From: Podarcis cretensis
Lineage: Eukaryota
Reading direction: 5' to 3'
DNA length: 64,000 nucleotides
NCBI GenBank assembly: GCA_951804945.1
Contig: OX638152.1
Location: 46,872,001-46,936,000 of the forward strand
In this document: positions 1-57,811 of the stretch, piece by piece
Layout: the number at the start of each line of letters is the position of its first letter
Numbering within the stretch: position 1 is the stretch's first letter
Notes under the pieces: generated by a model
Told to the model about the DNA's origin: nothing
The model's input: only the letters and a program-made list of their open reading frames with translations
The model's database searches: none
Translations under genes and position numbers: made by a program

Positions 1-160
1 CTAGCTTGACGATCCAAAGAGCTCTTTGTTTCATCTATGCTGGATGTATGCTGTCGTTCTAGAGAACTTCCTTTTCTCTCTGTCGAACCTCCACGTTGGC
101 CAGGGCCTATCTGCTGCCTTAAACCCTGACCAGGGGGTGGGTCTGGCGGTGGTGGAAGAT
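1..160 (-). CDS. ROBO2: ROBO2 exon with CC3 motif (truncated by window edge)
   Basis: Acceptor ttttag at 161-162; (D)LPPPPDPPPGQGLRQQIGPGQRGGSTERKGSSLERQHTSSIDETKSSLDRQA; not in ORF track. Confidence 0.95.
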
Positions 161-3113
161 CTAAAAATGTGAATAGACTCAGAATTTCAATGACATATTA
201 GTTACATTTAAATTTTAGCGGAAAATGAAAGGATTGGAAAGACTTGACAAAATATAGTTATCCTACATTTTTCACTTGGTTTTAGACAATTGCTAGATGT
301 TTTTGGCTGTAAATAACTGAACATGCCCTTCACCAGAAGAGTAATTTTTGTTGTGCTGCACTTGACAAGGTCAGTAAAAAAAAAAAGCTTTTATTTTCAG
401 TAGATGGGGGTTGTTTCCTTTTTCATCCTGTTTGCTATGAAATAGTTTTGAAATATATATATTCAAAATGCAGATCACATGTACCCTATCAGTTAAATTA
501 AAAGTGGCTTCATATGAAAGGTTTTCCTGAAGTTTTAACATGCACTCAAATGTTGAGTGAATTTGCAAATTGCTCTAAATATGTCCAGATTATAACACAA
601 CAGATTCTGGGAGGGTGGGGATCTTCAAATGCAAACTACTTTTTAAAAAAGAAGTCACCAGCCTGTGTTTAACTTCAAGCAAACTATACCCACGATAACA
701 TATATCAAATGTGTATGAGTTTTCCTTTATTTTTGAACCTTGCAATGGTGAAGAGACATTAGTAAGCACGATTTTTCAACATTTCTTAGTTGCAATCCAA
801 CATTCTGTCCATGCTGTTTCAAAATAAACATGCAAGACTATTTACATACCACTGCTCACTAAATCCTCTTAGATAAACACAGGATTTGCAATGCTTTGAA
901 TCATGCCTCTGTGAAATATTTTCTATGCATGAACTTTATAGTTCTTTCCTTTTCTGAATTGGGGCTATAGCAGTACTCTCACATGTGCATGCCAGTTAAT
1001 TTCTTTGTCCATGCAGCACTCTTGACCATCTTTGAGAAGATGACTGTACCATAGTTGGAACCACATGTGACTATGGGGAATCAAGAGTCTTCTGGTTCTA
1101 TCCATCTATAGTTTGGTATATGTTGATATTTCTGCACACAAATCTATACCCAGGGTGGTCAGTAGGAGTAAAGTGGATGGGAAAGAAACAGCTGGTGTTA
1201 ATACTTGTGAACCAGCCCTAATGGTGGAACAGATACTCGGGTATTTGGAGCATGACAACACCATTTTGTCTCATGGTGTCTAATTAGTCTAATTGTCTAA
1301 TTAGTTATTCAAAATAATTGAGACAATAAATCTTCCCCATGCCTATCCTACATGGCAATTTTCTCTTTGATTCATATAATGCTGAAAACACTTGTGCCGT
1401 TCATTCAAGCACTTTAACAATTGAGGTAGTAACTTGACATTCCATATTGCCTAATATCCCTTCATATGCAGTGTTTTCAATGAAAGTTGTTCACACATTT
1501 AGCCAGCAGTAATGTACACTTGTATTCAAGTTTCCCTTTCTCACTGGGACTGGATGGTGCACCTGGAGGAGACTAACCTTAATACAACGAGGAACTTCCA
1601 TCTTGATGTAAATAGCAGCTTTATGGAGGAGGTGAAGATTTGCATTGGAACTGAAGCAGAGGGGGGAAAGGGTTTAAACTCCACCCCTGCCTCCTACAAC
1701 CCCCACCCAGAGAGTCTCCATACAGCTGCTATCTGCATTCCTAAAGTGTCATGTAACTTAAAAAGCATCACGTGTAGTTGGGCCCAAGAGGTTCTGAGGT
1801 ATTTTTGTTTTTCAGGTTTGGTGGCAGGAGCTGTCTGGGGTCAAACTGGATACCTTAGGGGTGGCCTGTGTGCTGCTGCCCCATGTGGTGAGCCACTGAA
1901 CTGCAGATTGCAGCATCTTACTAGACAGATTTGCATCCTAAGGCCTCAGGTAAGTTTATTTATTTATACCATAACATTTATATGCTGTTTGAGTTATTAA
2001 AAAAATTATTAAGATATTAACAAAAAGAATAGAACAATGAAATTATCATGAAGAACAACCATTTAAGACATTCGAAAGATAATTAAAATAAATGATAAAC
2101 TAAAAACAGATTAAAGTACATATCAACATTCTACATATATGGGTAGTCTTGTCTGAACAAAATGCTTTTAGCTGATGGTTTTAGGTAGTAGGTGGATCCT
2201 CCTGGAGAGAAAGGACGATAGGCAGGCTAATGGCTCACCCTATGATGCAGCCACATACAGTCCCAATGGTTACCCATTTCAGCTTCATAAGCTATTGACC
2301 TCTAGTGAAAAGGATTTGTGGATAGTACCTCTTTGACAATAACAGATTTACTGGATAGACTACTCATTTGGTCAGTATTCTTGCTCCCACTCGTGTAAAC
2401 TAAACATGAAGAGGATCATAATAATTTGTAGTTTTTTCTCTGTGGTGCTTTAAGAGTCTGTTTGTTGCTTCAACCAAAATTGTGAGACATTTCTTATAGC
2501 ATGATATATTACTACAGTGACTTAGATTTTCAGTGCATTTTGAAATTGTCTTTCAATTTACTTTCCTTTTCTCCCCTTAGTTATTCGAGTGACAGAATAG
2601 GTTTTTGGATTCAACCTATAAAAGATAGTTTAGGATATAGGAGAGGGTAAACTGAGTTTCCAGTGCATGGGCAAATATTATTTGTAACTTGTCAAACAAG
2701 GCGTGTCAAATTGTTTCCTGTAAACGACAAATGCTGAACCATAATATATGGGCATGGAGCTCTGGCATCTTGCATATAACCGTGCATCTTATGACTATCT
2801 TTGGTTGTTCTCTTTCAGTGAGGTTTTATCCCCATTGGGGTTCATATAGTCAGTAAAAACATATTTGTCTGGAACACCTAGAATTTGCTGACTGCTCTTG
2901 CATTGGTTGGAATTTAGCCAAGTCATCAGAAGCTGCATCTAATGACAGCACAATTCTGGAAAGAGAAATTTGCAAGCCAATTAGTACATTAATGTAATAT
3001 TATTGGAGAGTGGTGGCTTTTCTCCCAATTCAGTAATTAGGGAACTGGGGATTCTGATATTTCGTGACAGCAAAAACCTCAACTGAGCCTAAATGTGTTC
3101 CCATTTGACTCAC

Positions 3114-3154
3114 CTTGGATTAGTGTGAACAGTGTGAGAGATTACCCAGTGTGA
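3114..3154 (-). other. Candidate 41-nt stop-containing cassette exon of ROBO2
   Basis: Minus strand: ctaaactaataactgttgttttcag | 41 nt | AAG gtgagt; in phase 1 reads VTLGNLSHCSH-stop. Confidence 0.5.
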
Positions 3155-3561
3155 CTGAAAACAACAGTTATTAGTTTAGACTTTTAAAAGAGCTTAATGT
3201 TGCTAACTCTCTAGCAGTGCACTTTAATGGAAATCTCAATTAATTGCAGATGATACCCAGGGAAAGAAATTGTGAATAAAGAAAATTGTTTCATGTTTAC
3301 TTGTGAACTGGACTATGTTTGGGCATTATATGGTTGACTCCCCTTCGCCCCTCAGTCTATAATGTAATCAATCTAATACTTTTGCCACTGATTTTGATAG
3401 GATGGTTGATAGTAAAGCATAGGTCGCCAGAAAGAAACTCTGATTATTTTCCTCATATGCCAGTCTTTCTGTATTTGGCAACCTGATTGCATTCCAAACT
3501 ATCTGGAGGGCTTTGTGTCAATGCGATTTCTTTCCTTCCTACCTTTTGTTCTGTTGTCTGG

Positions 3562-4080
3562 TAGGGTTGCCATAGTTCAAGGAGTAAAAATCTGGGCACC
3601 CTCAAAGTTGTTCAGCTTTTTTATCACCTTTCTCAAGGTCCTTAGCATTTAACAATCAGTTCTTCCTCTCCATTTCCCACCATCTGCTCCATAAGTAGGT
3701 CATCCTTCCCGTTAGTGCAGATTTCCCTGTCCCCAATCTAGATTGCAACTCTAGCATGGGACTAGGAGAGTTGCTTGCCATTTGCATTGCATTATAGGAA
3801 AAGGTCTCACTTCTGTCAGTGTGATGTTTTCCACAATGCAGATGGCTAATAGCGGACAAAAGGTCACTCCCAGTTTGCAATTCAGATTGCTGCCCCCCGC
3901 CCAGCACTGACAGTTTGTAAGAGGAGGGAGGAACCCTCACATGTAGTGCGACCTTTATTATCAAAGTATATAGTTAGGATTTATATACATGGATATTAAT
4001 CCCCAAAAGACACTGGTCCTGGAATAAATTTGAAACAAATCAAAATTTGCTATACTGTATAGTAGCAGCGTGACTGCCTA
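3562..4080. mobile_element. Non-autonomous hAT (Tip100-like) element, degenerate
   Basis: Starts TAGGGTTGCCA, a typical hAT-Tip100 terminus; degenerate right end gtgactgccta; no ORF. Confidence 0.45.
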
Positions 4081-4452
4081 TATTACATATTAGGTCGCAG
4101 TAGTCATTATGCAATATGGAAAATGAGTGGGCTCTGTACAAGGATCATGATTTTGGTATTGCAGCCATATTACTTCAGGCAAGCAGATGTGGAAGATAAT
4201 GTTTGAAAACTATTCACTAGGTGAAAGCACTTTTGTTTGTTCTATTTCACATTGTGATACTGTAACAGCTAGTAACAACTGTAAATTAATTGTTGTGTTC
4301 TGTTTTATCATTACAGATGGTGTAGAGATGGAAAAAACTTGACGTGCAATTTATGATGGTAATATGCAGAAAGGCAACTATTGTGGAATGTGGTCTAGAA
4401 AAAATTAAGATAAAATGCAGGAAGGGAAGTTGGCCTAGTTAACATATGGATG

Positions 4453-4510
4453 TGAAACTGCACATTAAGTGTTGTAACAACATGAAACTGCACATTAAGT
4501 GTTGTAACAA
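4453..4510. repeat. Tandem duplication, 28-bp unit, period 30
   Basis: tgaaactgcacattaagtgttgtaacaa at 4453-4480 and 4483-4510. Confidence 0.95.
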
Positions 4511-4529
4511 TGGATAAGCATATCCATTG

Positions 4530-5960
4530 TTAGAGACCTCCTAGGAAAGTACTACGTCCCGCCCTCCAGCAGTCTTATGTTTGAGCATTGCTGCATTTAA
4601 CTTCAAGACATGCTGCATCTTTGTAGTTAGCTAGCAGCCAATAGCTAGCAGGTAGAGAGAAATAAGCAGCTTGATTGAGGACTTGATTGAGGTTAATGTT
4701 ATGGTCATCACAGTGCAAATGATTCAGTCAGGGAACTTGCAACAAAACAAGGCAATGAATGGATTTGTACAATACAGGTTTTGTTAGACAGTGTAATAGT
4801 TCCACAATCATTGCTGCTACTATACCTGTGGCGTGTCAGAACCCCTACACATGAAACAAGGAATCAATTTAGTACAACTGGATGACATACCAATTCGGAA
4901 AAGTCACTGGCATTTGAGAAACTGTGCAAGTACTCTTAAAAACATGATGAATGCCAGTGCAGTATCGGTGAGTTAGTTGACAAATTGAAGGGGTTATCCC
5001 CCTTCTCAGGCAACGCACAGCGAGAAACATCTCGTAAGTAAATTAGAAGGTGCCTTTGGGGAAGTAACGTCTGCTTCATGTGCTCCAGGATTGAACAAAA
5101 AACAGCTTTGATAAAACTGCAACATACTTTCGGTACCAGAACACGAAAGTTGATATTGATGCACATCGACAGTACAAATAGCAGCAGCAATAATTTGGGA
5201 GGAGATTTATTTAAAGATCTATAGCTGTGACAGATTCAAGACTGGTGAGGTCGCTATAGCTATGGCAGAAGCTGGGAAAAGTCTACATGAGAAGATGTAC
5301 CACCTGTACAAAAAACGTTTAGCTTGCCAACCATTACATGCAAAATTTGACTTCACAGCCTTTTTACCAATGTTCACTGCTGTTAGGCAGCATAGTCTCA
5401 AGCATTTTCTACTCCTGTTGTGGTGCTGACCTATTGATTACTACATAATAATTCTATTTATATTACTTTATCTAATAACAACTTGCACATTGCCTTGTAA
5501 TATTACAGATGTTCCTAAAAATGGCATATTGACATCCTTATCTGTCAGCTGTATCAATGAGCTGCCAAGGACTATCAACACACTTCCATTTACAAATTTT
5601 TCACACACCTTCATCTGCTCACATTTTCGACCTGATTGTAGACATTAAAATATTGGTAAAACCCATGTTGTGGTGGTTTTACTGTTTCAGCAGCCTTATT
5701 TGTAACTATATCTTGGTATCATCACAGCTACTGAACAAGAAATAGGGATGGAGGTCGCAGTGGAATATTTGACACCAAAATCATGGTCCTTGCTGGTATA
5801 GAATCTGCATTACAGTAATTTCCCATATTCATATTTTTGCCACGATTATTTCCAAGGTGGGGTTGTTAGGGACAACTAGTATGTCGCTCAGGAAGTCAAG
5901 CTGCCATTATGTTTCAAATTTCTTCTTGGTCACATGTCCTACCAAACCTCGAGTATTTTT
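4530..5960 (+). mobile_element. Internally deleted Academ (AcademX-like) DNA transposon relic; ends approximate
   Basis: Frameshifted peptides in order: DSVRELATKQGNEW (4721), FHNHC, AFEKLCKY (4910), HDECQCSIGELVDKL (4943), SEKHLVSKLEGAFGE (5019), VQIAAAIIWEEIYLKIYSCDRF (5172), YHLYKKRLACQPLHAKFDFTAFLPMFTAVRQHSLK; resemble recalled Academ transposase motifs. Confidence 0.7.
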
Positions 5961-7454
5961 CTAGTTTTTTTGGGGGGGGAATGCATCTGTGCAGTAGATT
6001 CTAGCCTAAACTGGTCATTCTTTAATTTTTGTTATAAAATATATTAGAACATTAAAGTAAATTCCACCCTTCCCCCACATTTTGTGGTTGTATCAGTAAA
6101 CAACATGAATATTATTTACTGTTTGAACTTGCACCAAATGTGTAATCCTACGATTTTGAAAGGAACAAAACCTTGTCAAAAGCTGAAATTTTAAAATAAC
6201 CCGAAGCAGCCTATATTAAGCCTAAGTTACAGAATGTCATCAGACATATGTGTGAGAATAAATTCATATAATATTGCTTTGCTGTCCTGGTGAGACTGGA
6301 TTTCACATCTCAGTAGGAGAAACTAATGCTTGGCTAAATAGCCCAGCCATAATTCATAGCCTGACATAGATCTAACATCAACACTGACTGAAAGACTTGA
6401 AAGTAACAAATAGCAAGTGAAATGGAATCACAACATCCATCTTGGTTTCACTATCATCAATTAAAATGTTTTTTGATAAGAAATTTGAGAGATGAGAAAA
6501 TGGAAAATAAACTGACCACCTTTGAGATAATCAAGGTAGTAGAGCAAAACATTGTTATGAGAAAGGTATCAATTACTTATCAAGACAGAACAGTGACAGA
6601 AAAGATGTTTGTTTGTTTGTTTTAAAAGGGAAACGATGCTAGAGGTGGAAAAACAAAATGAAATCTAGAAGTCTGCCTTTCCTTGTGGTCCTGCCATGCC
6701 AACTTACATTTCTTTAAAAGAGAGTAATTTCAAAATACTGTACTGTGTGTTTTTAACACCACAAAATAAGTGGCATATTCATGCATATCTGGTGGAAATA
6801 TAAGAAGATGAGCTCTTTTTGGAATGATATGCATATGAGACAGACATTTGGATCTATTAAATATAATGCAACATTATTCTATAATATTATTTTGTAACTT
6901 CATTATACATCACTTAGAAACTATAGTGTTAAGTGGTAAATAAATTGTTGAAATAAGTAAATAGGTTACTTGAGAAATAAGATACATGCAGAACATATGG
7001 AATTGGTATGATACTAACTACAGCAAAAGTTTGAATTGCTTATAAACAAAAAATTTCTACTATGGTAACTATGAATAAATGGTTTATTAGAACCAAGTTT
7101 GCCCTGATGGAAAACTTGACACAATTTATGTAGTTAGGAGAGGGAAGTAAATTGACAGGAACTTTCCAGAAAGAATGGACCCCTTTTACTTCATATATTT
7201 AACATGGATCTTAACACATACAAAGCATTTTCACTGCTGTCTTAAACAGTAGTATAAGATAAATTATAATTAATGAACTGTGAGAATCTGTATGTAGAAG
7301 TCTATATATTTTGAATATTATGAATGTGAAAAGAAATGTGACAAAAATAGTGAACAAACACAATTTAATATAAACTTTCACGTAACTTGTTATACTAATT
7401 TGGAAAGTACCATTTTACAGTTAACATGGAAATGACTTCTAACAAAGAACTTAC

Positions 7455-7619
7455 CATCTGTCATTCCTTCTCTACGGTGAGGCAATGGAGGCTGATCCAC
7501 TCTGCCTCCCTTGTGTTTTTTGGTAGGCCTAGGCCTCTGACTCTGGGCTGCACTCGTGTTGCTGTCAGTAGAAAAGGGGCTGGTTGGCCGAGGCCTCTGA
7601 GAAGAGGAATATGGTTTGC
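7455..7619 (-). CDS. ROBO2: ROBO2 intracellular exon (165 nt)
   Basis: gtttgtag | (G)KPYSSSQRPRPTSPFSTDSNTSAAQSQRPRPTKKHKGGRVDQPPLPHRREGMTD | gtaagt; phase 1-1. Confidence 0.96.
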
Positions 7620-10050
7620 CTACAAACAAAAATGGAAATTGATACGTTATTCTGCTTACATGCCTGCTCTAACAGGCTTCCGTTTCTTTATTTGCAACAC
7701 CTCACATGAAAACTCATGACAACTGTTATTGACAGCACCACCAGCAAAGTGACAAACTCAGTGTTGGAGTTTACTGTTAAAGTTTATTTGAAAAACATTT
7801 TCACCATTTGCTGACCATCTTTTTTGTATGCTAAACAGAAATGCGAAACTAATACATTTTTTAAAAAAAGATTGGAAGCAACATTTACGCACCATGACTT
7901 CTATGCAGAAAACATGTGTTCTGGATGAGGAGTCTAACCTCAGCTTTGCCCAACACATGCTGTATTTTTATTGCATAAGTAACCACATTAGACAATTTAT
8001 TCTGGGGCCCAAACCATTCAAGAACAGGCTAATACAGATAAGATTTATCCATATTTCATTATTTTGTATGCATGCAGATGTTAATATTTATTGAAAAAGG
8101 TAGCTATTGGCTAATCAAATAGAGTTGTCATTTCCAGGTCTAACGAGACAGTTGTGTTCCCTTCAGTACTAATGGAGTGTTCATCAGCCAAAAAAAAAGT
8201 TATTCCACTCAATTTATATGTATTGCTTAAATTAACCAAGCAATACAAATTAACCAAGCAACACAGACTGTTTTAGTTTTAGTAAGAATGTATATTTTTC
8301 TTTCTTTTCAATGTCATCCATTTTAGAAACCTGAGGTGGAATCCAGTTTGTGCCCCAGCACTCATAGAAAGACTTTTGATCCACGAGACATCTCTAGTAG
8401 TGGAGGAGGAAGGGGGCAAATTTTAATTGATTCCTCTCCTGCAGTTCCCACACCTTAGAAATTACGATATGCTGAATTTTTGTAATTTTCTATAAAGTGA
8501 GGTTTTTGTTTTTTTTAACAATGGTTTCATAATTTTAAACAAGCATACATTAAGTTCGGTTTTTCAAAGCCAATGGAAGAACAAATGATTTTCGGCAATA
8601 ATCTACTTGATTAATAATACTTCAATATAAAGTCTTAGGATTTATGTAGAATACTACAGTATATTAGTCCTTTATTGTTCTTGATGAGATTGCAGTCTTA
8701 TAAAGCCTTCCTCCTCCTCCCTGCCTCCTCCCTGCTTTCAGTGACAAGTGCACTGCTCCCTTACAAGAGTCTATCACACAGACCACTTGGGATGTTTGTA
8801 GGAGAAACATGCATGCCAGAACCCTTACAAAGCCCTCTGTTTTATGTACAGGGTGGTTTAAATTTTACAACCATATGACAGCCATCCCACATAGTGGGTG
8901 TTAGGAGTTTGTTATGCTGTTGAAGTTTCTTGATCTGTGTAGTAATCCCTTTGTGTTATAAACAGGCCCAAGAGTAGCCAATGTATCTCTGGGCACTTCC
9001 ACACCATACTCTGGAGACTCTGCTGCTCATTCATGCAAGATTTGTGCAGCATCCACATGACATGATCCCCATCAAAATGTCATCCCATATTCCTTCCTCA
9101 TTTAATCTGGCTGTATTTTTGCTGGAATTTTACTTACTCAGTTTTCCACGGAAATAGAACAAATTGGAAAATAACACAGAGCGAAACACTATGTAGGGGC
9201 TGCACAAAACTTTCATGTAGTAGCTACAGAGTCCCCAATCTGCCATTAGGAAGTGCCCTCTGCCTCCTTAATGCACCTACTATGATCTGAACACAACCAT
9301 AGCCTACTTCTAAGCATTTTATGTACTTTGACTCATCTTTTTTGCAGAGAAGGAAAGAGAAGTAAGCACAGAAAAAATAAAATATAAGGTTGCCTTTATC
9401 TGGCATTTGAAAGCCAAATCAGAGTCACTTTGTTTAAGCAAGGCAACTAATTTGTTTAACTAGATGCTGTCCATGATACAATTTTAATTATAATCTTGCT
9501 GTCAGACACAATAAATGATTGGATTAAGTGCCTTAAAAGGCAACCATTTAATAAGGCTGTTAAACTGTTGCATTGTTAGAGTGATAAACTTTCACCAACT
9601 CACCCCATGCTCACAGTCTTCCCAGAAAATACATTTGGCAAGAGAGATGCAAAAGAGAAGCAGTAATGGAGATAAAAGCTAAGTGTGCAGTTCTTCACAA
9701 GAAATATTATTGATTGTGAGAAGGTTTTGCAAATAATAAATCATCAAAAATTGCATGGCAAAATTAGCAGTCTCCTTGAGGCCGTATTAAAAGGCAGTAT
9801 GTGTCGGTGTCAGTAAATCCATAGCAGAGTCAAGAGAAGTGTTAAAATGTCTGTGCACTGCACTGCTTTGTTTCTGCTTGAAGTACTATTAAACAAAAAA
9901 CAAAAAACCTAACAGGCAGAAACAAACCATCTGCTTTATATGCATGTTAGGCATATTTATGCTGAGGTTTTACTTTTCTTAGGAAAGGAGGAAGAAAGAA
10001 AAGACAGAGGCCCACATCATGCAAAAAGCATTAGCTTTGTGTCTACAAAC

Positions 10051-14705: not shown

Positions 14706-17700
14706 TCCCTTAAAATTTGAGCACAAGGATGAGCAGCAAATTTGGTTTAAATCTGGCTTTAGGAAACTTCAGATCTAATTTTGTCACAGATCAGCTGTGC
14801 CTTTTTCAAACAGGATGAAACAGGCTCCAAGCAGGTGTCCATTTCATACAATACAGCGCACTCTATTTTCCAATAGCTTGTTTGAATTCCCATGCTGTCT
14901 GTCAGCTGCAATTTTTTCCTCCTGCTGAAAGCAGCAGTAAGCATTTTATCTAGAACAAAATCCACTATTTGAAAAAGCTGAATTCTCTATTTTCCATAAA
15001 AATTTCAAGGTGCTGAAGCAATCAAAAAGTTATAAATAAAAGAGGAAGTGGGGGTTAGACTCACAAGTTTGTTCCTGGACCTTAGTATTACCAGATGTTT
15101 TTGCAGGTAAAAAAAGAGATGAATGTCATTCTTATTCACATTTAGCATTCTGTTTCTTGAAGCTAACAAGCTCATGAAACAGTAATAGGCATCTATACTG
15201 CACTCTTTTAAATACTAGTCTTTTTCTTCAGGTGCAGTTATCTTCTAGTGGTTCTACTTGAAAGAATTGATTTTATACACCTCAGCTTCAAATATGAAGA
15301 CTCTGGCCTTAAATGGATGCTATGTTGCAACATAATTTATCATGACAGTAAGAAGACATGAAAACCACTGATATGTCTATGATTCTACAAAGCTGGGAAC
15401 CATATTACATCAGAATACAGGCAGGGTATGTTCATACCTATATTCCGAGAAAGAGACCCATGGGCTGCACTACTGAACATTACTGAAAACCGAACCTCAG
15501 AGTTACAACATGTTCTACCATTTCAGAAGGGCATAGATAAATTAGTTGACAGGGTTCATTTGCATTGGTTTTTGTGACCTATTTCTGCATAAGAAGTGGG
15601 CAACCTTTTTGTTCTTGAGAACCGAGTTATCTGTGACGCGACTGGTCAGTTAGCGAAGTATTTTTATTTATTGATTTAGGGGGGAGCAACTGCCCCCCCG
15701 GGCTACGCCCATGAGTGAGGGTGCACATGCAAGCGGTAAGTGGAACAAACACTGGTGATGGAAAAAGCCAAAGATAAAAGTGTTCTGGATGAACTAATCT
15801 GGAATGCATATGACCTTGTTTAAATTTTTGCCTTGGCTTCTTCAGATTAGAATTTCCAGTCCTACATGGTCTATGCAGAAATTAGTCCTGCTTGATTTGA
15901 TGGGTTACTCTCAAATAAGTAGAAAGAAGTTATTTTTTGTGTGTTTTTGCTTTAAAAAGTACAATGGGTCGATTCTGCTACTTTTCTGGAAAGCAAGTGG
16001 AAATAATCCCTTTCTACTTTAGTGTGCTATATAAACACATACACAGCAGAAGCCTGCTTATTTGTTCTCAGAACCCCTCCCTCCCAGCCATAAAACCAGG
16101 AAACAAGTAAAACAAAAATTAAAGTATTTTTATCAAATAAAATGTTGCTTCTTCCAATTTTTTTGAAACCACATGGGGTTGAGAGGCAAAAAGCCAGGAA
16201 AAATAAGGTGGAAACCAAACTGAAAGGAAGGGACTCGGGATAAGTATGGAACAGCTTCAGGTGGTGTCAAGGGCCACATAAACTGAGGTCCAAGTCAAAG
16301 GTTTCCCACCTGTGCTATACTTTCACACATGCACAGTGTACTATTAAGCTGCTGGAATCTAGAGGGAAATAAATCTTACGATCACAAATTATTTTATGGT
16401 CCTTCAAATTCTGGCCTTGGTTGCACATGTTTTGCAGTCTCCAAGGTGCTGGATGAAGCTCCTGGTTTTGGATAGGCTGAGACTGAAAGCACCTCATAAT
16501 CTATGGCTGTCATAGGAGAGGTCTGACAGAGCCCAATGTGAATTATGTTTTATTGAATTCAGTGCTACATACACATGGGGATGTGTGTGTATAAACCTGT
16601 AAATTTCAGTTTATCTCAAAATGAATCTATCTTTCATAGAACTTCCACAGCAAAAGAAAGACAAAAAGCTTTATTTTCACTTTAGCGATTGCTGCCCCCC
16701 CTACTTTGTTTTAATAGCTTAATGCAACTTCAATTTTTTGTCTGCGTTTCGCTATTTAATGTGGTAGACATATTTACGAGGTGACAATATGCCATAATTG
16801 CAGTCTGAATATTTTAGTGAGTCTTTTATACAATTAGATCCCCAATGTACTATAAAGACACAAAAGACAAATGAAAGAGTAATAGAGCCTTGTATTTAAC
16901 CCTAGCCCTAGCCACAAGTGACAAGGAAGTGTGTGCAGGTAAGTGAGCAGGCTGGTGGAAGAAGGAAGGGGTGCTTCACCCGTCATCTACATCCAGCATA
17001 GAACCAAGTCTCCTGCCAGAGGAAATATGCTCCTTCTTCTTTTGGCTCATTTAAAAAGCTGCAGTGATGTGCTTTAGGTTGAAATGCTGCTTATTATCAT
17101 CATAAACAGGAAGACTCATAAAACAATGCCCACACATAACATTTTCATTCTGCCAGAAGTTCTGACTATATCTATGTTAGCAGTGGTCAGATTTTTGTTC
17201 TTTCTGTTTTATATCTGGGCCATACTATGCTTTAAAATAGACTGGCCCTCCTTTGGTCAAGGGTGAATTTTTTAAAAATGGGAAATTGTAGCAGCGTAAA
17301 AGTTGAAACAAGGACAAACACCTGTTACTTTGGGACTCTTGCCAGACAAGTTGCGGTTAAATTGTGGTATAACATGTTTAGCATTGTTATCTAAAAGACT
17401 GCTAGTGGCATCTGTGAAATGTTTTAATGATTTGGCTACGCAAGAGAGTCTACTTCTTAATCACTGCACTGGCATTAGCCACAGGAAGCAATGACATCAG
17501 CAATGGTGACAAGGACTGGCACACGTTACCTTTCTTCCCTGCCTTGTCATTGCAATGTCAGTGGCCAAGTAAATGAACCACAATAATGTCCTCTGGAGAA
17601 TAAATCAGGGTTGCACCTGAAAGTAGTAATATAGAACACACAAGCACATAGCACAAGGGAGGGAAATCTGTCCTTTTAATTATTATTTTTTAAGCATTCA

Positions 17701-21669: not shown

Positions 21670-22350
21670 GTTTTAGGGGAGGGGTAGTACCTCTGGTGGG
21701 GAACATGCCACGCTCCTTCTGGAGTAGTTTGCTCACCTTTGGTCCCCACCCTGCACGCAACTCTCACCTGTGGTTCCTAGAAGCTGTCAGTCTGTGGCAG
21801 CAGCCAAATCCCAAGAAGGGCTTTAACTGGCTGGCTAAACCAGGTGAGGGTAGCTAATGGGCCTCAAACCTTTGCTGAGTTAGGGACTTGCATATGAAGG
21901 CTCCAGCGGACTGAGCAGACAAGACCAGTAATGGGTTAAATGGTCAAGAAGGTAGTTTCTGCATGTGCTGTGGAGGGAAGTGAGGGGCAGATGGGGCTCA
22001 TTAATCTCAGAAGGTAGCTCATCTAGGAGAAGGAAAACTATTGACTCTAATCCTTGCAGGATATCTTCAGGAGAAGAAAAGGCAAAGGAGTAAACTCTCC
22101 ACAAATTTGGAGTGGATTTGAATGGTGCCTTGTATGCCTCCTTCAGCAACTTCTGCGGCCAAGCTGGTGCCCTGCTTTCCTTTGGACATCAGTGAGGGTT
22201 GGTTTTTTTTGCCATTTAAGTAGTCCAGGACTTCCATACATACTGTCCAGGCTTGTGCCCCAGGGAGGACACTTCAGTGCTGGTAACGCAGTAATTTGAC
22301 TTCACCCCTGGAGACACACTCCATTGTTTCTTGAGACAGACAGATGCCAA
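21670..22350 (+). mobile_element. Probable RTE-derived non-autonomous retroelement
   Basis: GC-richer block resembling recalled squamate RTE 5'/3' bipartite elements (…ttgacttcacccctggag…gagacagacagatgccaa); no intact ORF. Confidence 0.45.
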
Positions 22351-29350: not shown

Positions 29351-30279
29351 GCATTACTGGTGACAACCCTTAAGCTGTTGTGGCTACTGAAAGGGATGTA
29401 GCAGAAAGACCAAATTGTATTTTGTGGTGCTTAATACTTCTGGCCTTTCCATTTCTTCTCAGGGTCAGGCACTGGCATCTAAATGCTCTGATCACACTGT
29501 GACCAGGAAGTAGCAGCCAGCTGAAAGGTCTTGCAGTAAGGGGCTGTCTGCCTCTCCCACTTACCTGCTTGTTACACAGGTATTCTTTTAATAGTCACAT
29601 ATTACTTGCATATATTAACTCTTTCCCTCATATTTAAAAGTCAGTGGAATAAAATGGAAAAGCTTCATTCTTCCTGTGCACACTTTCCTTATTTTTTTCC
29701 TATAAGGCACTTGTCTTTTCAAATTTAGCTTTCTTCTTCTAACAATGCACTTTCTGGGGCAGGGAGAACTGTGCTCATTATCACTGCAATATTATAAATA
29801 ACTGGAAAGTGTAATTGAAAGACAAACATAGTAAAAGCTATGGCTGAGCTGTGTGAATCTTGAAAGTATGCTGTCAGCATCACTGATTACTTAGCTTTAA
29901 ATAACCAGTGTTGTCTTGGTGACAAATAAAATTCTCCCCGCCAAATAATAGATACTATACACAACTGAGAAGCCAAGACCTGTGTCACAAAGGTTTCTCT
30001 ACAGATAATGCATCAATTTACCTGTCTTATTTATCATTGTGGTGTCTTAAAAATATATGGGAGTTATTTGTCTTTTATTGCACAATTATCTGAGCTGAGA
30101 ACAGCAAATACATTAAAGTGCAGATATCGTTATTGAGGGTGGGGGGGGGGAGAGAGGATAATTATTAATCAGTACCACTTGAAGCAAAGTGTCTTTCTTT
30201 GTGGGTAGACCAAGTGCCCTCTTGAACAAAACATTTTAAAGGCAAATAGAAATCCTGTTAGTAGAGTATTTTGGGGTGA

Positions 30280-37779: not shown

Positions 37780-38100
37780 TTACATTTATTTATTTGATTT
37801 TATTTAACAAAATTTATATACTGCTTTATAGCAGCAAAAATGATTTAAATGGGTGCTGAAAAAATACAGTGAAGGTGCCTGCCTGATGTCAATAGGCAAG
37901 GAGTTCCAAAGTGTAGGTAGTGCCACACTTAAAGAACAATTTCATACAAGTACAGAACAAGTATGATGTGGCACCTGTAACAGTGCCAGTTGAGCAGATC
38001 AAAGCAGTCGAGTGAGCACAAAAGGGGTGAGTTGGTCCCAAACTGTTAATGGCTTTATGTACCAATAGTAACACCTTGAACTTGGCCTCGTAACAAATCA
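37780..38100 (-). mobile_element. L2 LINE 3' end, old
   Basis: FKVLLLVHKAINSLGP on minus strand; (TTTA)n tail near 37785. Confidence 0.75.
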
Positions 38101-39791
38101 GCCAGGAGGGGCAGGGGTCAAGTGGAGGGTATAGCTGCCAGTGCCTGGTCCACATCAACTGATTGCATAAGTTGAAATCAATTCCATCACTGACTCTGCC
38201 AGTGGAATTGCAAGAAGTACAGAGTCAAGATCACTTTCTCTTCAAAGTGTGTAGCCAGTTGGCCACAGCAAGTCCTCAAATGCTCTAGAAGTCCCTCTCC
38301 CACAGTGGAAGTCAATAATCTCTGGATCATCCAAACTAACTCTGTGAAGAGGTGTATGTGAATCTGAACTTATGGTATGGTTTACCTCTGTAGATTGTGG
38401 GATGTATAAGATTGATATAGCTCTAATATGACATGACACCCTCCATTATGAGCTTTGGTGACCCTGGAACAATCCTGGTTCCAGCCCTCTGCCGAAGGGG
38501 CATTTGGGCATATCCTGAGTTCACCCACATCTGACCTAAAGATTAACACATGGAAATTTAGTTTTCAAGTACAGGATACTCAGCTCCTCAGTGGTAAGGT
38601 GATTTGAAAGCAGATAGCAGACAAGGATACCCAGGTTCAGATAATGGCTCAATATCAAAGTCTTTCACCCTTTTGTTAAGGAAACAGGATAGCCAGATTT
38701 AGCCATTTTTCGAGGTGAGGATTTGGCAGCAAATTCTGGAAGGAACTATGGAAATTGTAGAAATTACTCAATTCACAGCCCTCTCCCCTCTCCACTGGCA
38801 TGCCTTGGCAAAAAGGTATTAAAAATCCATTAGATTCAAAGGTTAGTTAATTTTTCCAGGTCCAACATGACAGCGTTTACCCAGCGCTCTCCACGATTCA
38901 GCACACTTCTGCTTTGCTTTAAGGACAGGTATATTTTCCTTATGCCTCCTCCCCCCCCCCCCATCCACTTCTTTATGGCAAAATTGTTGTGCTCTTTTAC
39001 TCTTTAATGAAGGTGTGTTTATATTGTAGAATTTGCTACCTACCTAGACTGTAACTTTGCTATCTGAAACAGCATTTATATACTGTTACTCTTATTTTAT
39101 ATAATAAACCAAGCTTTCCTTATTCCTTCTATAACAAGTGCATGTCATAACTCCAGCAGAAGATCCTAAACCTCTCAGCAGTGTCTATACGAACATACAT
39201 GAGTGCTGGCTGTGGAAAGGTGAGTCTAGGTACACACTTGTAACAACTTCTCTGGCTGACTACCAGAGGATTCAAGCTCAATTCAATGGGTCACATTCAG
39301 TTCTGCATGAGCAAAGTAGGATTTCATCTTCCATTCCTTTCCCCTGCAAGTCCCCAAAATCTGTTTTGGATGGTCTGTCTCCCGAAACCTGTTTCACTTG
39401 TGCAACAGCAGCACAGGATACAGCCCAATATAATGAATGTGTAGCATCTTATGAAACGGTTAAGCACATTAGAATAGCATAGTCATTCTGCTAAACTATT
39501 TCATCTGGTTTAGAAACAGTACTCAAGTTCTATGGAGTAAATTCAAAAGGAAGACTTTGCAGAATCATAGACACATGTCCATAACCCGTCCCCCTAAACA
39601 CTAATATTCAGAGGGAAATGTAGCTTTCCTTTTTTTCTTAATTGATGGTCTTGTTCTATTGCTATGTGGTGTTCTTCCTTTTAGTTATCTATATTTCCAA
39701 ATGTAGTCAAATAAAATTTCATGTAAAAAATGAATGGATAGTTCTGCAAATTATTATTATTATTTTGCTAAAGCACTATGAACAAACCTAC

Positions 39792-45110: not shown

Positions 45111-48100
45111 ATTTATGTAAGCAGGTGCTCACAACGAACACTTCTTCAGAGCTTAATCCTACCCCCTCCCCCAAGAAAGGCGTTAGATATAGAGGGATTA
45201 TGTTCCTCTTTTGCTCACTAGTAGGGCTATTAAAAATAAAGTATTCCTAATACAGATGGCCAAACTTCCAGTCACATGAGAAGCTCCTAAATAGCACTTT
45301 CCATCTTGTCCCCATTCTCTATGTTCTGGGACATGATGTCCGCTTCTTAATAGCAGCCAATATTTTGCAACAAAGCAAGCAGTTGGGCAGAATGCTTAGC
45401 TACAGGAGCTTTCCTTTCACTCAGATTGTAGTACTATATCAGGGGACAGGAGGAATGGAGTTGACCCTGCAGTCTGATTTCTGTAGGCTTATACTGGCTC
45501 AGTTAGGCAATCCTGAAAGTAAAGTAAAGAGTGCTGGCAGAGTGGTGAGAAGGGAATACCTTGGCAATAAGAAGCTAAGACCCCCTGTGTTCTTATGATT
45601 CTATGAACTGGACCGATGTGGTTGTCATTCTGATTGCTTGAGTTATTTTCTCCATCAAAAACAAAGTCATGTTTCTTTATCATTTTTTAATGTTTGCTGG
45701 GTGTTATAAATAGTTCTCATATGGTGAGGTTATAATGCAATATCTGTTTTCAGTAGTTGCATTTCTTATGGAATTATCTTACAGCCTTTGGGGAACACAT
45801 TTATAAGGAGAAGTAACCACAGAAGAATGGATGCTGCTTCACTATTACATCTGTCTCTGGAAATTAATATAATTTTCAGAGTGACAACTGTTATCCTCTC
45901 AGAGTGACAATTGTCAAAGGATAATAAGTTTATAATATTGCAATTAATGTCTCCCTCCTCCAAAAAATATCCTCCCTTATTATTTAAGTTATTTTATTTC
46001 CCAAAGCTTCATACAATCCACAATAAAAATAGCTGGGCAAGCCAGCAAGAGAGCATCACTCTGAAAGGATCAACATTCTGTGGAAAAGGCAGCAAAAGTC
46101 ACAAATGATAGTCTGCCAAACTAAGCACTATGTTTATCACTGTTACCATATGTTTGTGTCAGCATTTTTGCCTGCAGTTTGATTTCTGGAATTGCAAAAC
46201 ACGCCTAAAATGCTGAAGGGAAACATATTTGAATACAGTAGACTACAGTCCTTACAGACATAACGGGGGGTGGGGGGGGGGGGGTGGATCAGCAAAGCTG
46301 ATTTAATTCAGGGATCTAAATTTCAAAAAACTGCTGAGACATTTTGAAAGTTGAAAGGGAGATGAAAGACAAATTCCATCTATTATCACAAAAAACTGTT
46401 TATATGATTATGGATCTCATACAGATTCTTTAAAAATCTGCAGAATATAAAGGGAGGAACATGTTTTAAAAATATGACGTACACAAGGATGTATTGAAAG
46501 AGGGAATGAGAGAGGTTTGAAGAATCCTTGTTAACCTGTGTTGCAAGGTCTATACAAAAACATGCACAATTAAGCCTCACACAAAAATTGAAAAAAAACT
46601 CATATACATACAGTATACAAAGATACTATGGTACTAGTTGAACTATTTACGAATACTATCTGGCAAGGTTAAACCCAATCTTCATGCAGGCTAGAACCAA
46701 AAAATAGAAATACACACTCAGCTGACATTTTGAGGAAATAAAGCTTTCTGTGTGCCTATCTCTAGTGGGCCACATTTTCCTAGTACAAATGAAAACTTTA
46801 ATGTTGCCAGCCAAGTCTCTTCCCTTTTTCTGATAAGCTGTTCCTCAAATATGAATACAGATTAATCCTCTTTTAATAAGCATTAACTCAGAACAGATAA
46901 TCAGCATATAAAAATTCTGACAAATCTTCCTGCATTTGGATGGTTCTGTCAAATAATTTATAATAATCTACCACTGTTAGGACTTGCGCGCGAAATGTTT
47001 AGTTTGCCATTTGTAATTTGTTTTTATTTACTCAGTTTCACAACAATCTTTAATCCCCAAGCTTAGTATTTATAAGCAAAAATGTATGGTTTTCGTTCAG
47101 GCTGATAGTGTATGCAGTTAGAGGAACATGTCTGCATTCCTGCAAATGGATGCACACACACTCAGGAAACTGAGGCCAGATGAAAGATACATTACATTTT
47201 TCCTGTTTCAGTAGATGGATTTCTATGAATTTATAAGAAGCATTTTTTATCCACAGGATGGATAAATGTGATGGGGTACTACATAGCATAGAAGGATTCA
47301 CCTGAGAAAATGGATTCTTTTTTATCATTCTTATGGAATTTGAAAAGTTGGTATCTGCCTAGAAAAGAGGTATGTGCTTTCTGTCAGCTCACCTTTCTTT
47401 CAACCATGTTAAAGCCTGCAGTGTATGTTTGCACAAGGAGAATTCAGAAACTAACCATGAAAAACATAACAAGCACGATTATACCTACCTGAAGTGTAGT
47501 TTTTCATTCCCTACGAATGAAAGGTCAGCAGATTGGGTTGCTGGTTCCGACCATGGCCCAAAGCGGGCAGTAATGTTTTGGGGTGTAGGGTTCCAAGGAT
47601 TCAGTTTGCAAACTCTCCAAGCTCAAGGGAAAGACAGACATTAAGAAGGAGAAAAGTATATCCTACATCCCAGAAATAAAGGAAGGAGCTAGCCTTGAGG
47701 GTGGGGCCCTGCTGACCTTTCACTGGGAATGGAAAACTATGCTTCAGGTAGATACAATCATACATTTTCCCATTCCTTCAATGAAAGGTCAGCAGATTGG
47801 GAGATACCAGAGCTATCCTAATCTCAGACAGCAGAGAGGCTGCAATGTTATGGAGGAGAGAGAACATTTTGTAATGTTTCATGAAGGTGCTGTGGGAGGA
47901 CCAGGTGACTGCCTTGCATATTTCCAGCAGTCCAGCATTAACTGAAAATGCACTGCAGGGAGCTGCAGAACAAGAGGAGTGAGCTATGATGTGCAAAGTG
48001 ACAATAAGTCCCTGAGCTTTGCAGGAACAGGCCTTTATCCATCTAGCTAGAGTGGCAGAAATCACAATCCTAAGGAGAAGAGATGGAATGAAACAAAGAG

Positions 48101-51822: not shown

Positions 51823-53337
51823 TTAATTTTTGAATGAAAGGAGGGAAGGGAAGGGTCAAGCTCATTTAAGAAAAGGTGATCTGATAGATATGTAACAGGG
51901 GTGTAACAGGATGCCTTGAACAACAAATGTGACATGTGCACACAGCAAATTAGGTGAACAGTCTATAACAGGGATAGAAGAAGCACTCTTGTTGCATGAA
52001 CCTGTTTTGAGAAAAACAAGGAGACCCAAGTCTGAGTCACTAGAAATTTGTTTGAATTCCGGTTGATAAAACTTATCAAGGTGAGTGTGTAACAGAAGTG
52101 GGGCGAAAGGTGGTCACACAGTTGGTGCAATTTTTCTTGGAATATCTTGTTTTCATTTGTCAAAATGTCAACCAAAAATAAAGTGCATTCACATCTTCAC
52201 AGTAGCTGCAAAAGTATTCACAACTGTGCTTATTTGTGAGCAAGCTTAATGCTGGCAAGGGTGCTGCTGATATTTTCTAACAATAAATTTTGCTTGACAG
52301 ATTGTATCAATCATGCAGATGTTGAGGTAATCATATTCCTGCACGATGAGTATTGGCAGAACAAAAATATATCTTGAGAGTCTTGCCATTGCATACAGAA
52401 TTTCCGTCAGCCTGGGCAAACTGGATAACAACTGAGTATTTGCTCGCCATATCCTTATCAAAATGGGTAAGAAATGCCACCTTGGAGATTTTGCCTAAAC
52501 CAATGTGGACTAGGAAGGGGCAAGCTGTGGAAACCACAGGATAACTATTTGTCTTAATAGTGGCTTTTAACTGTACTTATTACTTTCCTCGTCCACGCAT
52601 ATGTTGGGTAGGTTGGTTCAACCTGCCATTTCAGCCACAGTTCATTTACTTTTCACATCACTTTAATCACACTAACTATAATAGCTAGCTTTATGTTAGG
52701 TCTGCTAAGGAAATGATAATGGCAGAGTCATTTCAAGGTTTTGTTTTGCAAATAGGTTTGGTCTAAATGAAAGCTGTAGAAATGTGTGAAAATATGTTGC
52801 TTAGAATGGGCTGTTTATGCATTAATAGTAACTCAACTTGTATTGAGTATTAAATTTATGTGAATGGCTTTATTTCTGACCATGCCTGGCATATGTTCAA
52901 GTTCAGGAAGAATCTACAAAGAAGCTAGGATAAGTTCTGCTTCTCTGACCATCAGTAAATATCTTCAGAAATTTGCAAGTTAAGCGTGGAGATCCTTAAG
53001 CATAAAATTTGGCCCTTTGTGATTAAAGGCTTCATGTGGATAAATATATTATTTCAACCAATGTGCTACAAATTACCTTTCAAAACAGAGTAGGTTAGAA
53101 GGGCAGGGTGAGTGGGCAGGATGCACAATTATAAAGAAAGGTTTATTACTTTGTAGCCTTCTGCTGGAATCACTGGTACAGTCAATATCACATTAGTGTA
53201 ACTGATGAGCAGACAGAGTGCTTCTTCTTGCACTTGAGTGTTAAGTCTTTGTATAATCTGAATAATTAGAAGGGGTTCAACCACTATATGCTGCACTGAT
53301 ATGTTGCTGGGGTAAGAGACAGACTAATGAACAGTAC

Positions 53338-53364
53338 CTGCAGGGGTGAAGGTGAAGGACTGAA
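53338..53364 (-). CDS. ROBO2: ROBO2 27-nt juxtamembrane microexon (VQSFTFTPA)
   Basis: tacttttcttgttttgcag | TTCAGTCCTTCACCTTCACCCCTGCAG | gtactg; symmetric phase 1; paralogous to ROBO1 VPSFTFTPT. Confidence 0.9.
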
Positions 53365-55669
53365 CTGCAAAACAAGAAAAGTAAATACATTGTGAGTTAT
53401 AAACCCCATTAAGAAGTGCGCCAATTAAAGGGCACAAGTGCCCTTCAGAATTGACTTATGTATGTAGCTCAAAATCTTGTGCAGATTATAGCAACTCAGC
53501 TTTAAGCACTAGCCAGCCAGCAGCCCATGAAAAATAAAGGATTGAAAAGAGGTGGAAGGCGATTTTGACAATTATATTGAATAATAACCGGCAACATGGA
53601 CATGCAATCCATCTCATAGATGCTATGACCAGCTTTGAAATGTAACTGCTTATGAGATTTTACTGTCGAACAAATGCAATGTTTGAAAATTAATGGACAA
53701 CCCTGTGTCACAATACAGCAGCCAGCCACATACTGAGCAGGGTCACTTAAAATGTCATGAATGCCAGTACCATATACATAACTATTTGGGGGCAATGAGC
53801 CTTCTAACTTAGATATTCCACAGTTTTGGGTGCTGACAAATGGATATGGCTGTCAGCTAGAAACCAAATTTTCTACATATTTTTTGCTGCATAAATATTT
53901 ACATATATGGTAAAATCACATATTGTTAGATGATACAAGCCTGTTCACAGAAACATGCTGTTATACATAACACAAAAGCCAAACAACTGAAGACATGAAA
54001 CATTTCATTAGCAATTAAGAAGTATACATGTGTATTTAGCACATCTGATGTATACAGAAATATAGCATAAAATAGTGAATCTACTAAACCCATAAAGTCT
54101 TATTAATAGCTATCTAACGTAAGGAGGTGACAACACATTGCAGCTTTCAGTGTCACTGATCTTGATGTATCTAACTTCTGAACAGAGTTTGGTGATTTGT
54201 TTAAAAAAAATAATCAGAGAAAGCAGAAGCTACCATCATATATATGCACATTAATTAAAAGGAAAGGAAGAAAAACATGTGCAAACAGCATAGCCTATGA
54301 ATAATGTAGCTTCACCACCGTGGTCATTCAGGCACTGTATATAATTAATAAGAAATCAACAGGATTCTGGAGTTAGATTTGTGTAGCACACAGCCAGAAG
54401 TAAATCTGCTTGAATTGCCCTGAGTGCATAAATCATTAGAGATATTTTCTTTATCAGAAAAGATATGGCACCTAAACTGATGGTTGAACTTTATGGAAAT
54501 GCAGATTCATTAATAAGAGTTTCTGATTCACCTGCCATGGAAAGCACGGCTCTAGCACTTTTACTACACACAACAATATATAAAGGGGGCTATAGGTAGG
54601 AAGGGTTGTTTTTATAATAAAAAACTGTTGTTTTTCTGTTGGTTTCAACACAGCTGTGAACTATGTGTTTACACCCAGAACCACACTGCAACAAGTTACT
54701 ACTCAACATGAGACAAAATTCTGAGGAACACATTCTACAAAGCCTTTGCTTTCATAACATGGATACAGAACTTCATCTGATCCAAAATAATTTTCACACA
54801 GTGAAAATTAAAGGATTTTGAGGTGCCAGTGTTCATGCCTATGCATCTGTTTCTTTTATGAGCTATGGAATGCATCGTGCATGGAACAGGAAAGCCTTAT
54901 ATACCTCTGGATTGTTGTATTTAATACAAGAGAAAGGAAGGCTTACTCATGAAGTGAATGATGCTCTGAATCAGGGGTATCCAATGTAATGCCCTCCAGA
55001 TGTTTTGGACTACAGATCCCATCATCTCGGGTCTATAGCCATGCTGACTGGTGCCAATGGGAGTAGTAGTCCACCCCTGGAGGGCATCACGTTAGCTATC
55101 CCTGTTGTAAATACCATCCAGTTCAGTGAAACCTTAGTGAATACAAAGTTGGGACACTGTGATGCACTGGATCTACATTTTCTATATTCCTTTTCATCTA
55201 TTCATACTATAAGACTGGATCACGCCTTAATTATGTTTGCTTCAAAGAACTAAAACATAATGGTTCTCATCTAGTTACAATTATTCAAAACTGTGACTAA
55301 AACCAATGGAAGGAAGTAATTCTTCGAAGAAGACTCTGTTCTAAGTAATTTAAGTGAAATAGGTGCCATTTTATTTTGCTTGTTCATGTTTCAAGCTTCA
55401 CAATCCTCTGAAATACTGAACGTGGAAATACATACACTTCTTTTCACACCAAGACCTGAATGAAATAGGATTGAATAAGAATGAATAAGATTCCTGAGTG
55501 TCTTACATATATCAGATGTATTTATTATGGGAATATTAATTTTTTTGCAGTAATGTGATGCAGAGCATTACTGAGCAAGCATACAACAATCACCCATTCC
55601 ACTCTTCATTTCATGAGCTAGCAATGTTTTTGACTGAACATGTGTTTAGAAAACAGCTCTTGTTCTTAC

Positions 55670-57050: not shown

Positions 57051-57811
57051 CCCAATTATACAACAATTTAAAGCCCTTTGATGTAGAATGATTGTATTTC
57101 TGTAATTTATTGGAATATAGTTGCCAAGCTATGTAATACCTGAGCTCCTTAGCTTATTTCCTGTCATATTGCTGTTATTTTTGGAAGAAAATACTTACTT
57201 AAAGCTATAATCTTACAGAATGTGTGTGAAAACAGCGACCACATAATTGCACAGTGCAAATGGTTATAATGTTATATCATTGTGCCTTGCTTTGAAAAAC
57301 AAGCAAACATGTTTTTCCTTTTCAGAATGATTAAAATTGTAGTTCATTTTTTGGAAGGAAGCAGTGCTATGTCAGCATATTTATTCAAGCCTCAGGTAAG
57401 TAAAAATAAGGTCATTTGTTAAACTGATTGCAAATGACTAAAGGCTAGGTGTGTTATTTCCGACTCCTACCCTTTCATTGCCAGATAAGAGAATGAAAAT
57501 AGCATTCTGTAAATGGTTATCAAAGCCTAGTAACATCTGCATCCATTTTATTTTATTAGATTATGCATCCTTAAGACCTGCTCAGCCTGTGTCAGCTTCA
57601 CAAATGCAATTCCATATTGTCTAAGCAAAAGTAACCCTCACATTCTTACTGAAACTACAATTTCACACAGTAAATATAAATGAATTATACTTGCAAAGGA
57701 CAAGAAGGAGCTTGTTCCACAGTAGATAAGGAAATATCAGGTTTCTCCACTTGCCAATCTCAAACTTTAACTTGCTGCCACTATTTAAAAAGATCCTAGC
57801 TGCTGCACTGT

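Follow-up and report, generated by a model that had tools for sequence, protein, structure and literature searches.

A 41-nt exon-like element in ROBO2 intron 25 of Podarcis cretensis, probably a silenced pseudo-exon upstream of the CC3 exon

Introduction

According to the accessible parts of the papers cited here by PMC number, to which the statements taken from them are limited, most unproductive splicing is noise, produced at cryptic sites that lie in long introns and are not conserved (Fair et al. 2024, PMC11387194). Cryptic NMD exons can also be controlled by NOVA, as was shown by CLIP, RT-PCR and NMD block for Dlg3 and Scn9a (Eom et al. 2013, PMC3552424; the accessible text does not mention Robo). 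The conserved poison exons of SR-protein genes and of SCN1A/SCN8A are characterized by deep conservation, regulated inclusion and a premature termination codon (PTC) that precedes later junctions by more than 50 nt (PMC13542418). Within the Robo family, 3′ splicing is tied to NMD and to an altered C-terminus in the Robo3.2 isoform, an experimentally established intron retention in a paralogue of ROBO2 (PMC13542418). ROBO2 itself has the cassettes 6b, 21, 24b and 26, which keep the reading frame and are common to lizards and mammals (PMC6687390; PMC13078869), and exon 6b is under NOVA control (PMC6687390).

The candidate described here, a 41-nt stretch in ROBO2 intron 25 of P. cretensis, resembles the unconserved cryptic exons of PMC11387194 in its strong-looking sites, multi-kb intron, non-triplet length, absence from protein annotation and predicted NMD if used, but differs from them in its clustered QKI/SF1 and NOVA motifs, which are usually missing from random pseudo-exons. 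With the Dlg3 and Scn9a exons it shares a neuronal NOVA target, a YCAY cluster and a PTC, whereas it is a candidate defined from sequence. The position of its PTC is that of the conserved poison exons, but no equivalent of it was found in the tables searched for mouse and human. Compared with Robo3.2 it is a predicted cassette instead of a retained intron, and compared with the other ROBO2 cassettes, which lie in the same gene region and of which exon 26 is its downstream neighbour, it breaks the phase-1, multiple-of-three pattern. In our assessment the candidate is probably a silenced pseudo-exon that is almost always skipped.

Materials and methods

The window, i.e. the whole stretch of 64,000 nt that was analysed, and 50 kb of neighbouring genome were used for the placement of lacertid ROBO2 proteins, from which the exon map was derived. 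Exons were numbered after the mouse primers in PMC6687390 on a by-eye reading. The protein set comprised 155 ROBO2 proteins, made up of listed matches, short matches and cluster members. Contigs of four runs (X1, X5, X6 and X11; four studies, two organisms), drawn from the 17 of 22 runs guessed to be RNA, were placed on positions 1-7700. The strict pattern used for chance estimates consisted of a perfect 9-mer donor, at least 8 pyrimidines in 11, a branch motif and a length of 25-250 nt.

Results and discussion

Exon map of the ROBO2 3′ region

ROBO2 lies on the minus strand, with its 3′ part in the window; the exon that ends at 7455 matches lacertid ROBO2 isoforms, including Podarcis muralis, without differences. 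The following exons were placed:

21544-21330, minus: ROBO2 exon 24, by protein mapping
10233-10051, minus: exon 24b, 183 nt in lizards and mammals alike
7455..7619, minus: exon 25, 165 nt, phase 1-1, upstream partner of the candidate; matched by an X11 contig (7455-7621)
1..160, extending 85 bases past the window edge, minus: exon 26 (CC3 exon), 246 nt
outside the window, minus: exon 27, 201 nt
G000:C4:46865144, minus: terminal exon, by protein mapping with isoform support

Exon 26 is an in-frame cassette that starts at 160 and has only its 5′ part inside the window. The terminal exon is backed by a P. lilfordi isoform that continues into it, and also by isoforms whose last residue is the first one past a phase-1 donor. 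Exons 24b, 25, 26 and 27 (1-21544; G000:C4:46865144-46871915) are phase-1 modules with lengths divisible by three, and many skip combinations of this modular tail occur in annotated gecko and lacertid isoforms. A micro-exon of about 27-30 nt at 53339-53368 (minus) is present in 4 of the 29 lacertid and cordylid isoforms examined and absent from the four ROBO2 cassettes of the mammalian tables.

Splice signals of the candidate

The elements that the earlier note had described (ACTAAT, pyrimidine tract, AG, 41 nt and the donor AAG|gtgagt) were all confirmed on the minus strand:

3114..3154, minus: candidate cryptic exon, 41 nt, frame-shifting, in ROBO2 intron 25
3155..3175, minus: acceptor, with ACTAAT at 3175-3170, an adjacent UAAC half-site, a pyrimidine tract and an AG ending at 3155
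3108..3113, minus: consensus donor gtgagt after AAG
3120..3122, minus: TAA in the frame read from exon 25, 6 nt upstream of the donor
2980..2985, minus: third ACTAAT, downstream of the candidate donor

The TAA overlaps the second ACTAAT (3124-3119, minus). Both the 3′ and the 5′ splice site look functional, as is expected of a poison exon: the donor is one of two perfect 9-mer donors on 113.5 kb of sense strand, and in a matrix trained on just 10 ROBO2 exons the acceptor ranked 54th among 7,424 AG and the donor 6th among 5,938 GT of the same strand. U1 and U2AF could bind these sites. The exon itself is short, contains no GAA and consists of 41% purine, a composition by which weak exon definition would lead to skipping. 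Positions 2950-3300, described earlier as repeat-free, had a single match in the genome itself in a search skipping simple repeats and very common words. No matches were obtained with Rfam for 1-10000 (E up to 1) or with Pfam for four intronic open reading frames.

Two other origins were rejected. A recursive-splicing exon carries a GT donor straight after the acceptor AG, and the candidate starts with TCAC. Local duplication was discarded as none of the repeats covered, namely 20 of 23 direct families and 25 of 46 inverted pairs, overlaps the exon.

Chance occurrence of similar elements

The strict pattern occurred in 15 of 100 (Markov order 2) and 13 of 100 (order 4) simulated 64-kb strands, figures that are lower bounds because the pyrimidine threshold was lowered from 9 to 8 after the candidate had failed at 9. 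Without the branch motif it was found in 37-48 of 100 strands, and with one donor mismatch allowed there were about 3.5 occurrences per simulated strand. In the real sequence the candidate is the sole strict match on 113.5 kb of sense strand, and the antisense strand of the region has one. Under the looser rule (one donor mismatch) seven further unannotated sense-strand donors qualified, together with just one of ten true ROBO2 exons, two of which exceed the length limit. Among the other non-exon pairs, eight on the sense strand and three on the antisense strand reach the summed site score of the candidate. The splice signals of the candidate are strong, yet just moderately beyond chance.

Its stop codon carries little information. 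Of the 11 other pseudo-exon pairs in the window, ten are closed by stops in all three frames, so that a stop is to be expected in elements of this kind, and a length of 41 nt shifts the frame anyway. None of the 11 shares a 6-mer with any ROBO2 protein fetched. Other pseudo-exons with perfect or near-perfect donors were seen on the minus strand at 29565-29801, 47302-47510, 21737-21967, 37784-37855, 30022-30094 and 53077-53201, and on the plus strand at 16718-16938, 39048-39219 and 57326-57395.

Predicted consequence of inclusion

Joining exon 25 to the candidate in silico yielded 11 new residues followed by the TAA at 3122-3120, as the earlier note had claimed. The distances from the stop to the downstream junctions are 6, 252 and 453 nt with exon 26 included, and 6 and 207 nt with exon 26 skipped. 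By the 50-55 nt rule, a stop farther than this from the last junction usually triggers NMD. Since this distance is 207-453 nt whenever exon 27 is kept, NMD is predicted, and the candidate in this respect has the PTC position of a poison exon. The proposed logic of frame shift, stop and decay was therefore borne out as a prediction.

The earlier note had suggested a switch that either degrades ROBO2 mRNA or makes a receptor without CC3, and the second half is weakened. CC3 is required for the binding of srGAP3 to Robo2 (PMC3104994), and a receptor cut after exon 25 would lack CC3 and the tail. Such a receptor could be made if the candidate were joined directly to the terminal exon, the sole path escaping NMD, with the stop 6 nt before the last junction. 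However, on every path through exon 27 at least 207 nt separate the stop from the last junction, so that a stable truncated protein is not expected as long as exon 27 and the terminal exon follow. A near-identical product is moreover already annotated in gecko, where an isoform skipping exons 26 and 27 (P0150) ends one residue past exon 25, and CC3-less receptors already arise by in-frame skipping. We consider a stable truncated receptor extremely improbable.

In-frame skipping of the CC3 exon

The peptide of the candidate was found in none of the 155 ROBO2 proteins. Exon 25 was followed by exon 27 in 68 of these, by the CC3 exon in 70 and by the last exon in one; seven read into the intron and nine lack the end of exon 25. 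Among the best 120 of 848 matches, exon 25 led to exon 27 in 61, to the CC3 exon in 56 and into the intron in three. A search for short proteins returned just four intron read-throughs and no candidate peptide. Splice-like flanks are thus combined with absence from annotated coding isoforms, as is expected of a pseudo-exon. Further skips in gecko models concern exon 25, exon 27, and exons 26 and 27 together.

Four ROBO2 cassettes, of 12, 126, 183 and 273 nt, are listed for mouse brain and likewise for human brain (PMC13078869, supplements 3 and 5, as far as accessible); all are flagged as ORF-preserving and none lies in the intron of the candidate. The CC3 exon is the 273-nt cassette; for mouse, the entry carries the ORF-preserving flag together with an NMD prediction by a model (PMC13078869). 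Annotation and brain tables show that the CC3 exon is skipped in frame in lizards, birds, mouse and human, and a CC3-less receptor therefore needs no poison exon.

ROBO2 was not found in the supplementary tables of PMC11632617, PMC9882217 and PMC8091538, nor in 11 of the 20 supplementary files of PMC13004596, all of which possibly carry no gene names. A metagenome scan for vertebrate ROBO2 loci gave 595 pattern matches, of which none was confirmed, and no ROBO2 poison exon at this position was described in the literature listed. Absence from protein databases and from steady-state RNA says little, since both under-represent NMD isoforms.

Putative QKI and NOVA sites

Three ACUAAY motifs (QKI/SF1) lie within 190 nt, at 3175, 3124 and 2985. 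They are the sole cluster of three within 200 nt on either strand of the 113.5 kb (Poisson P about 0.003 given the branch site). Intron 25 (161-7454, minus) holds nine ACUAAY where 2.9 are expected (P 0.003, uncorrected, with 11 introns and seven motifs looked at and the motifs chosen post hoc) and is the only one of the 11 introns enriched in this motif on the sense strand. The candidate exon contains three YCAY (NOVA) motifs at 3154, 3137 and 3128, a count reached in 3% of 41-nt windows. RBFOX, PTB, MBNL, TDP-43 and TGC motifs showed no clear enrichment within 300 nt.

A YCAY cluster and an ACUAAY branch site, the features of exons repressed by NOVA or QKI, are thus present, at modest significance and on a post hoc choice of motifs. 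Given that exons with ACUAA branch sites are repressed by QKI (PMC13004596) and that NOVA acts on cryptic NMD exons and on Robo2 exon 6b, the candidate could be a poison exon under regulation, probably confined to lacertids or squamates: QKI and NOVA would repress it, and at low levels of these proteins it would be included and lower ROBO2 mRNA by NMD. The strong splice sites and both motif clusters speak for this reading. On the other hand, an equally rare motif of any kind occurred three times in 19% of 3,000 random 240-nt windows, and the accessible mammalian tables (PMC13078869) contain no such exon. In Nova1/2 double-knockout mice the total amounts of Robo2 mRNA and protein do not change (PMC6687390, section 6), a finding that speaks against conservation of a NOVA-gated version. 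Weighing these points, we regard a regulated poison exon as a tentative and rather unlikely reading. The repressor sites also fit the plain silencing of a dangerous pseudo-exon.

Decoy exons, which act without being spliced in, are a known concept. As such a decoy or QKI-binding platform, the candidate would help to set the inclusion of the CC3 exon 3 kb downstream. The ACUAAY enrichment of intron 25 includes a site at 202, 42 nt before the CC3 acceptor, and inclusion of the CC3 exon is regulated in mouse brain (PMC13078869); but 3 kb is far for direct action, and no paper listed in a literature search on QKI, ROBO2 and splicing dealt with this event. We consider this role very unlikely. Independently of the candidate, the ACUAAY excess in intron 25 raises the possibility that QKI represses the CC3 cassette exon.

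Contigs over the candidate

In the contigs of the four runs, from which rare variants are dropped, no joint or displayed loose end was found at 3154 or 3114, and the control joint 7455-160 was likewise not listed. X1, X5 and X11 have no cover at the candidate, though X11 holds exon 25 at a depth of 51.7, with one contig matching it at the exon borders. An X6 contig (2708-3226) passes unspliced through both candidate splice sites, which fits pre-mRNA or DNA. It differs from the window in 8 of 507 letters (1.6%, a close lacertid), compared with 74 of 2,249 letters in the seven other X6 contigs listed (Fisher P 0.04, heterogeneity P 0.19). This slightly low divergence would favour a regulated poison exon; the contig, however, also has 16 gap letters (placement within the contig not displayed), unlike an ultraconserved element.

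Antisense RNA in intron 25

A joint 1949 -> 4317, with GT..AG when read on the plus strand, is present in contigs of X5, where its short side has 133 letters. X1 shows it less clearly (27 letters, with one differing letter at the joint). The two runs come from two organisms and two studies. The joint defines the following features:

1816..1949, plus: antisense exon, with a strong acceptor at 1815/1816 and a perfect donor at 1949/1950
4317..6634 (3′ end not fixed), plus: long antisense 3′ exon, with a good acceptor at 4316/4317

The antisense intron (1950-4316) spans the candidate. The strong acceptor at 1815/1816 lies close to the start of the X5 piece, and X1 contigs form long pieces over 4368-6634. 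Positions 4300-5400 are single-copy in the genome; the small exon contains a fragment of a dispersed repeat (about 1866-1920, 31 other matches). The longest Met-started frame of the joined exons has 67 codons. A spliced, apparently non-coding antisense RNA thus crosses intron 25 in lacertids, its direction being suggested by the splice signals; a polymorphic deletion would be an alternative explanation of the joint. Its arrangement differs from that of dog ROBO2-AS, located at the 5′ end of the gene (PMC7745631).

The exon 1816-1949 is one of four perfect-donor pairs on the plus strand, and it turned out to be spliced. Further observations were near-consensus plus-strand donors upstream of it, a 165-codon stop-to-stop frame at 1503-2000 (plus) that overlaps it and has no Pfam match, and a perfect 28-nt direct repeat at 4453-4510, 30 nt apart, in the 3′ exon, where X1 contigs have deletions.

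The antisense RNA is abundant in a run whose contigs show no ROBO2 exons. Intron 25 might act as a regulatory hub, in which a QKI/NOVA-gated poison exon sets the receptor dose beside the CC3 cassette and the antisense RNA helps to silence the locus, an arrangement that we hold to be improbable.

Conclusions

A silenced pseudo-exon is favoured because the chance rate is 13-15 in 100, seven look-alike donors exist, the peptide occurs in 0 of 155 proteins, the mammalian tables are without such an exon, Robo2 levels are unchanged in mouse Nova knockouts and the X6 contig is unspliced. Against a plain pseudo-exon stand the sole strict match on the sense strand, the motif clusters, the low X6 divergence and the spliced pair on the opposite strand. 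As a silenced pseudo-exon, the candidate would be kept out of mRNA by its weak exon definition, with additional repression through YCAY sites of the NOVA type and ACUAAY sites of the QKI type. If it were included on rare occasions, the frame would be shifted and NMD would be the likely outcome, with no selected switch. CC3 would in practice be controlled by skipping exon 26, and the phase-1 exons next to it, in frame.

If the candidate were used and regulated, ROBO2 dose would be under a splicing-to-decay control for which the literature search found no prior report, and Robo3.2 would have a lineage-specific parallel. By the available evidence the candidate is an ordinary look-alike within an intron. 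Two other results are better founded: across amniotes CC3 is already switched by skipping in frame, and in lacertids a spliced antisense RNA runs through intron 25.
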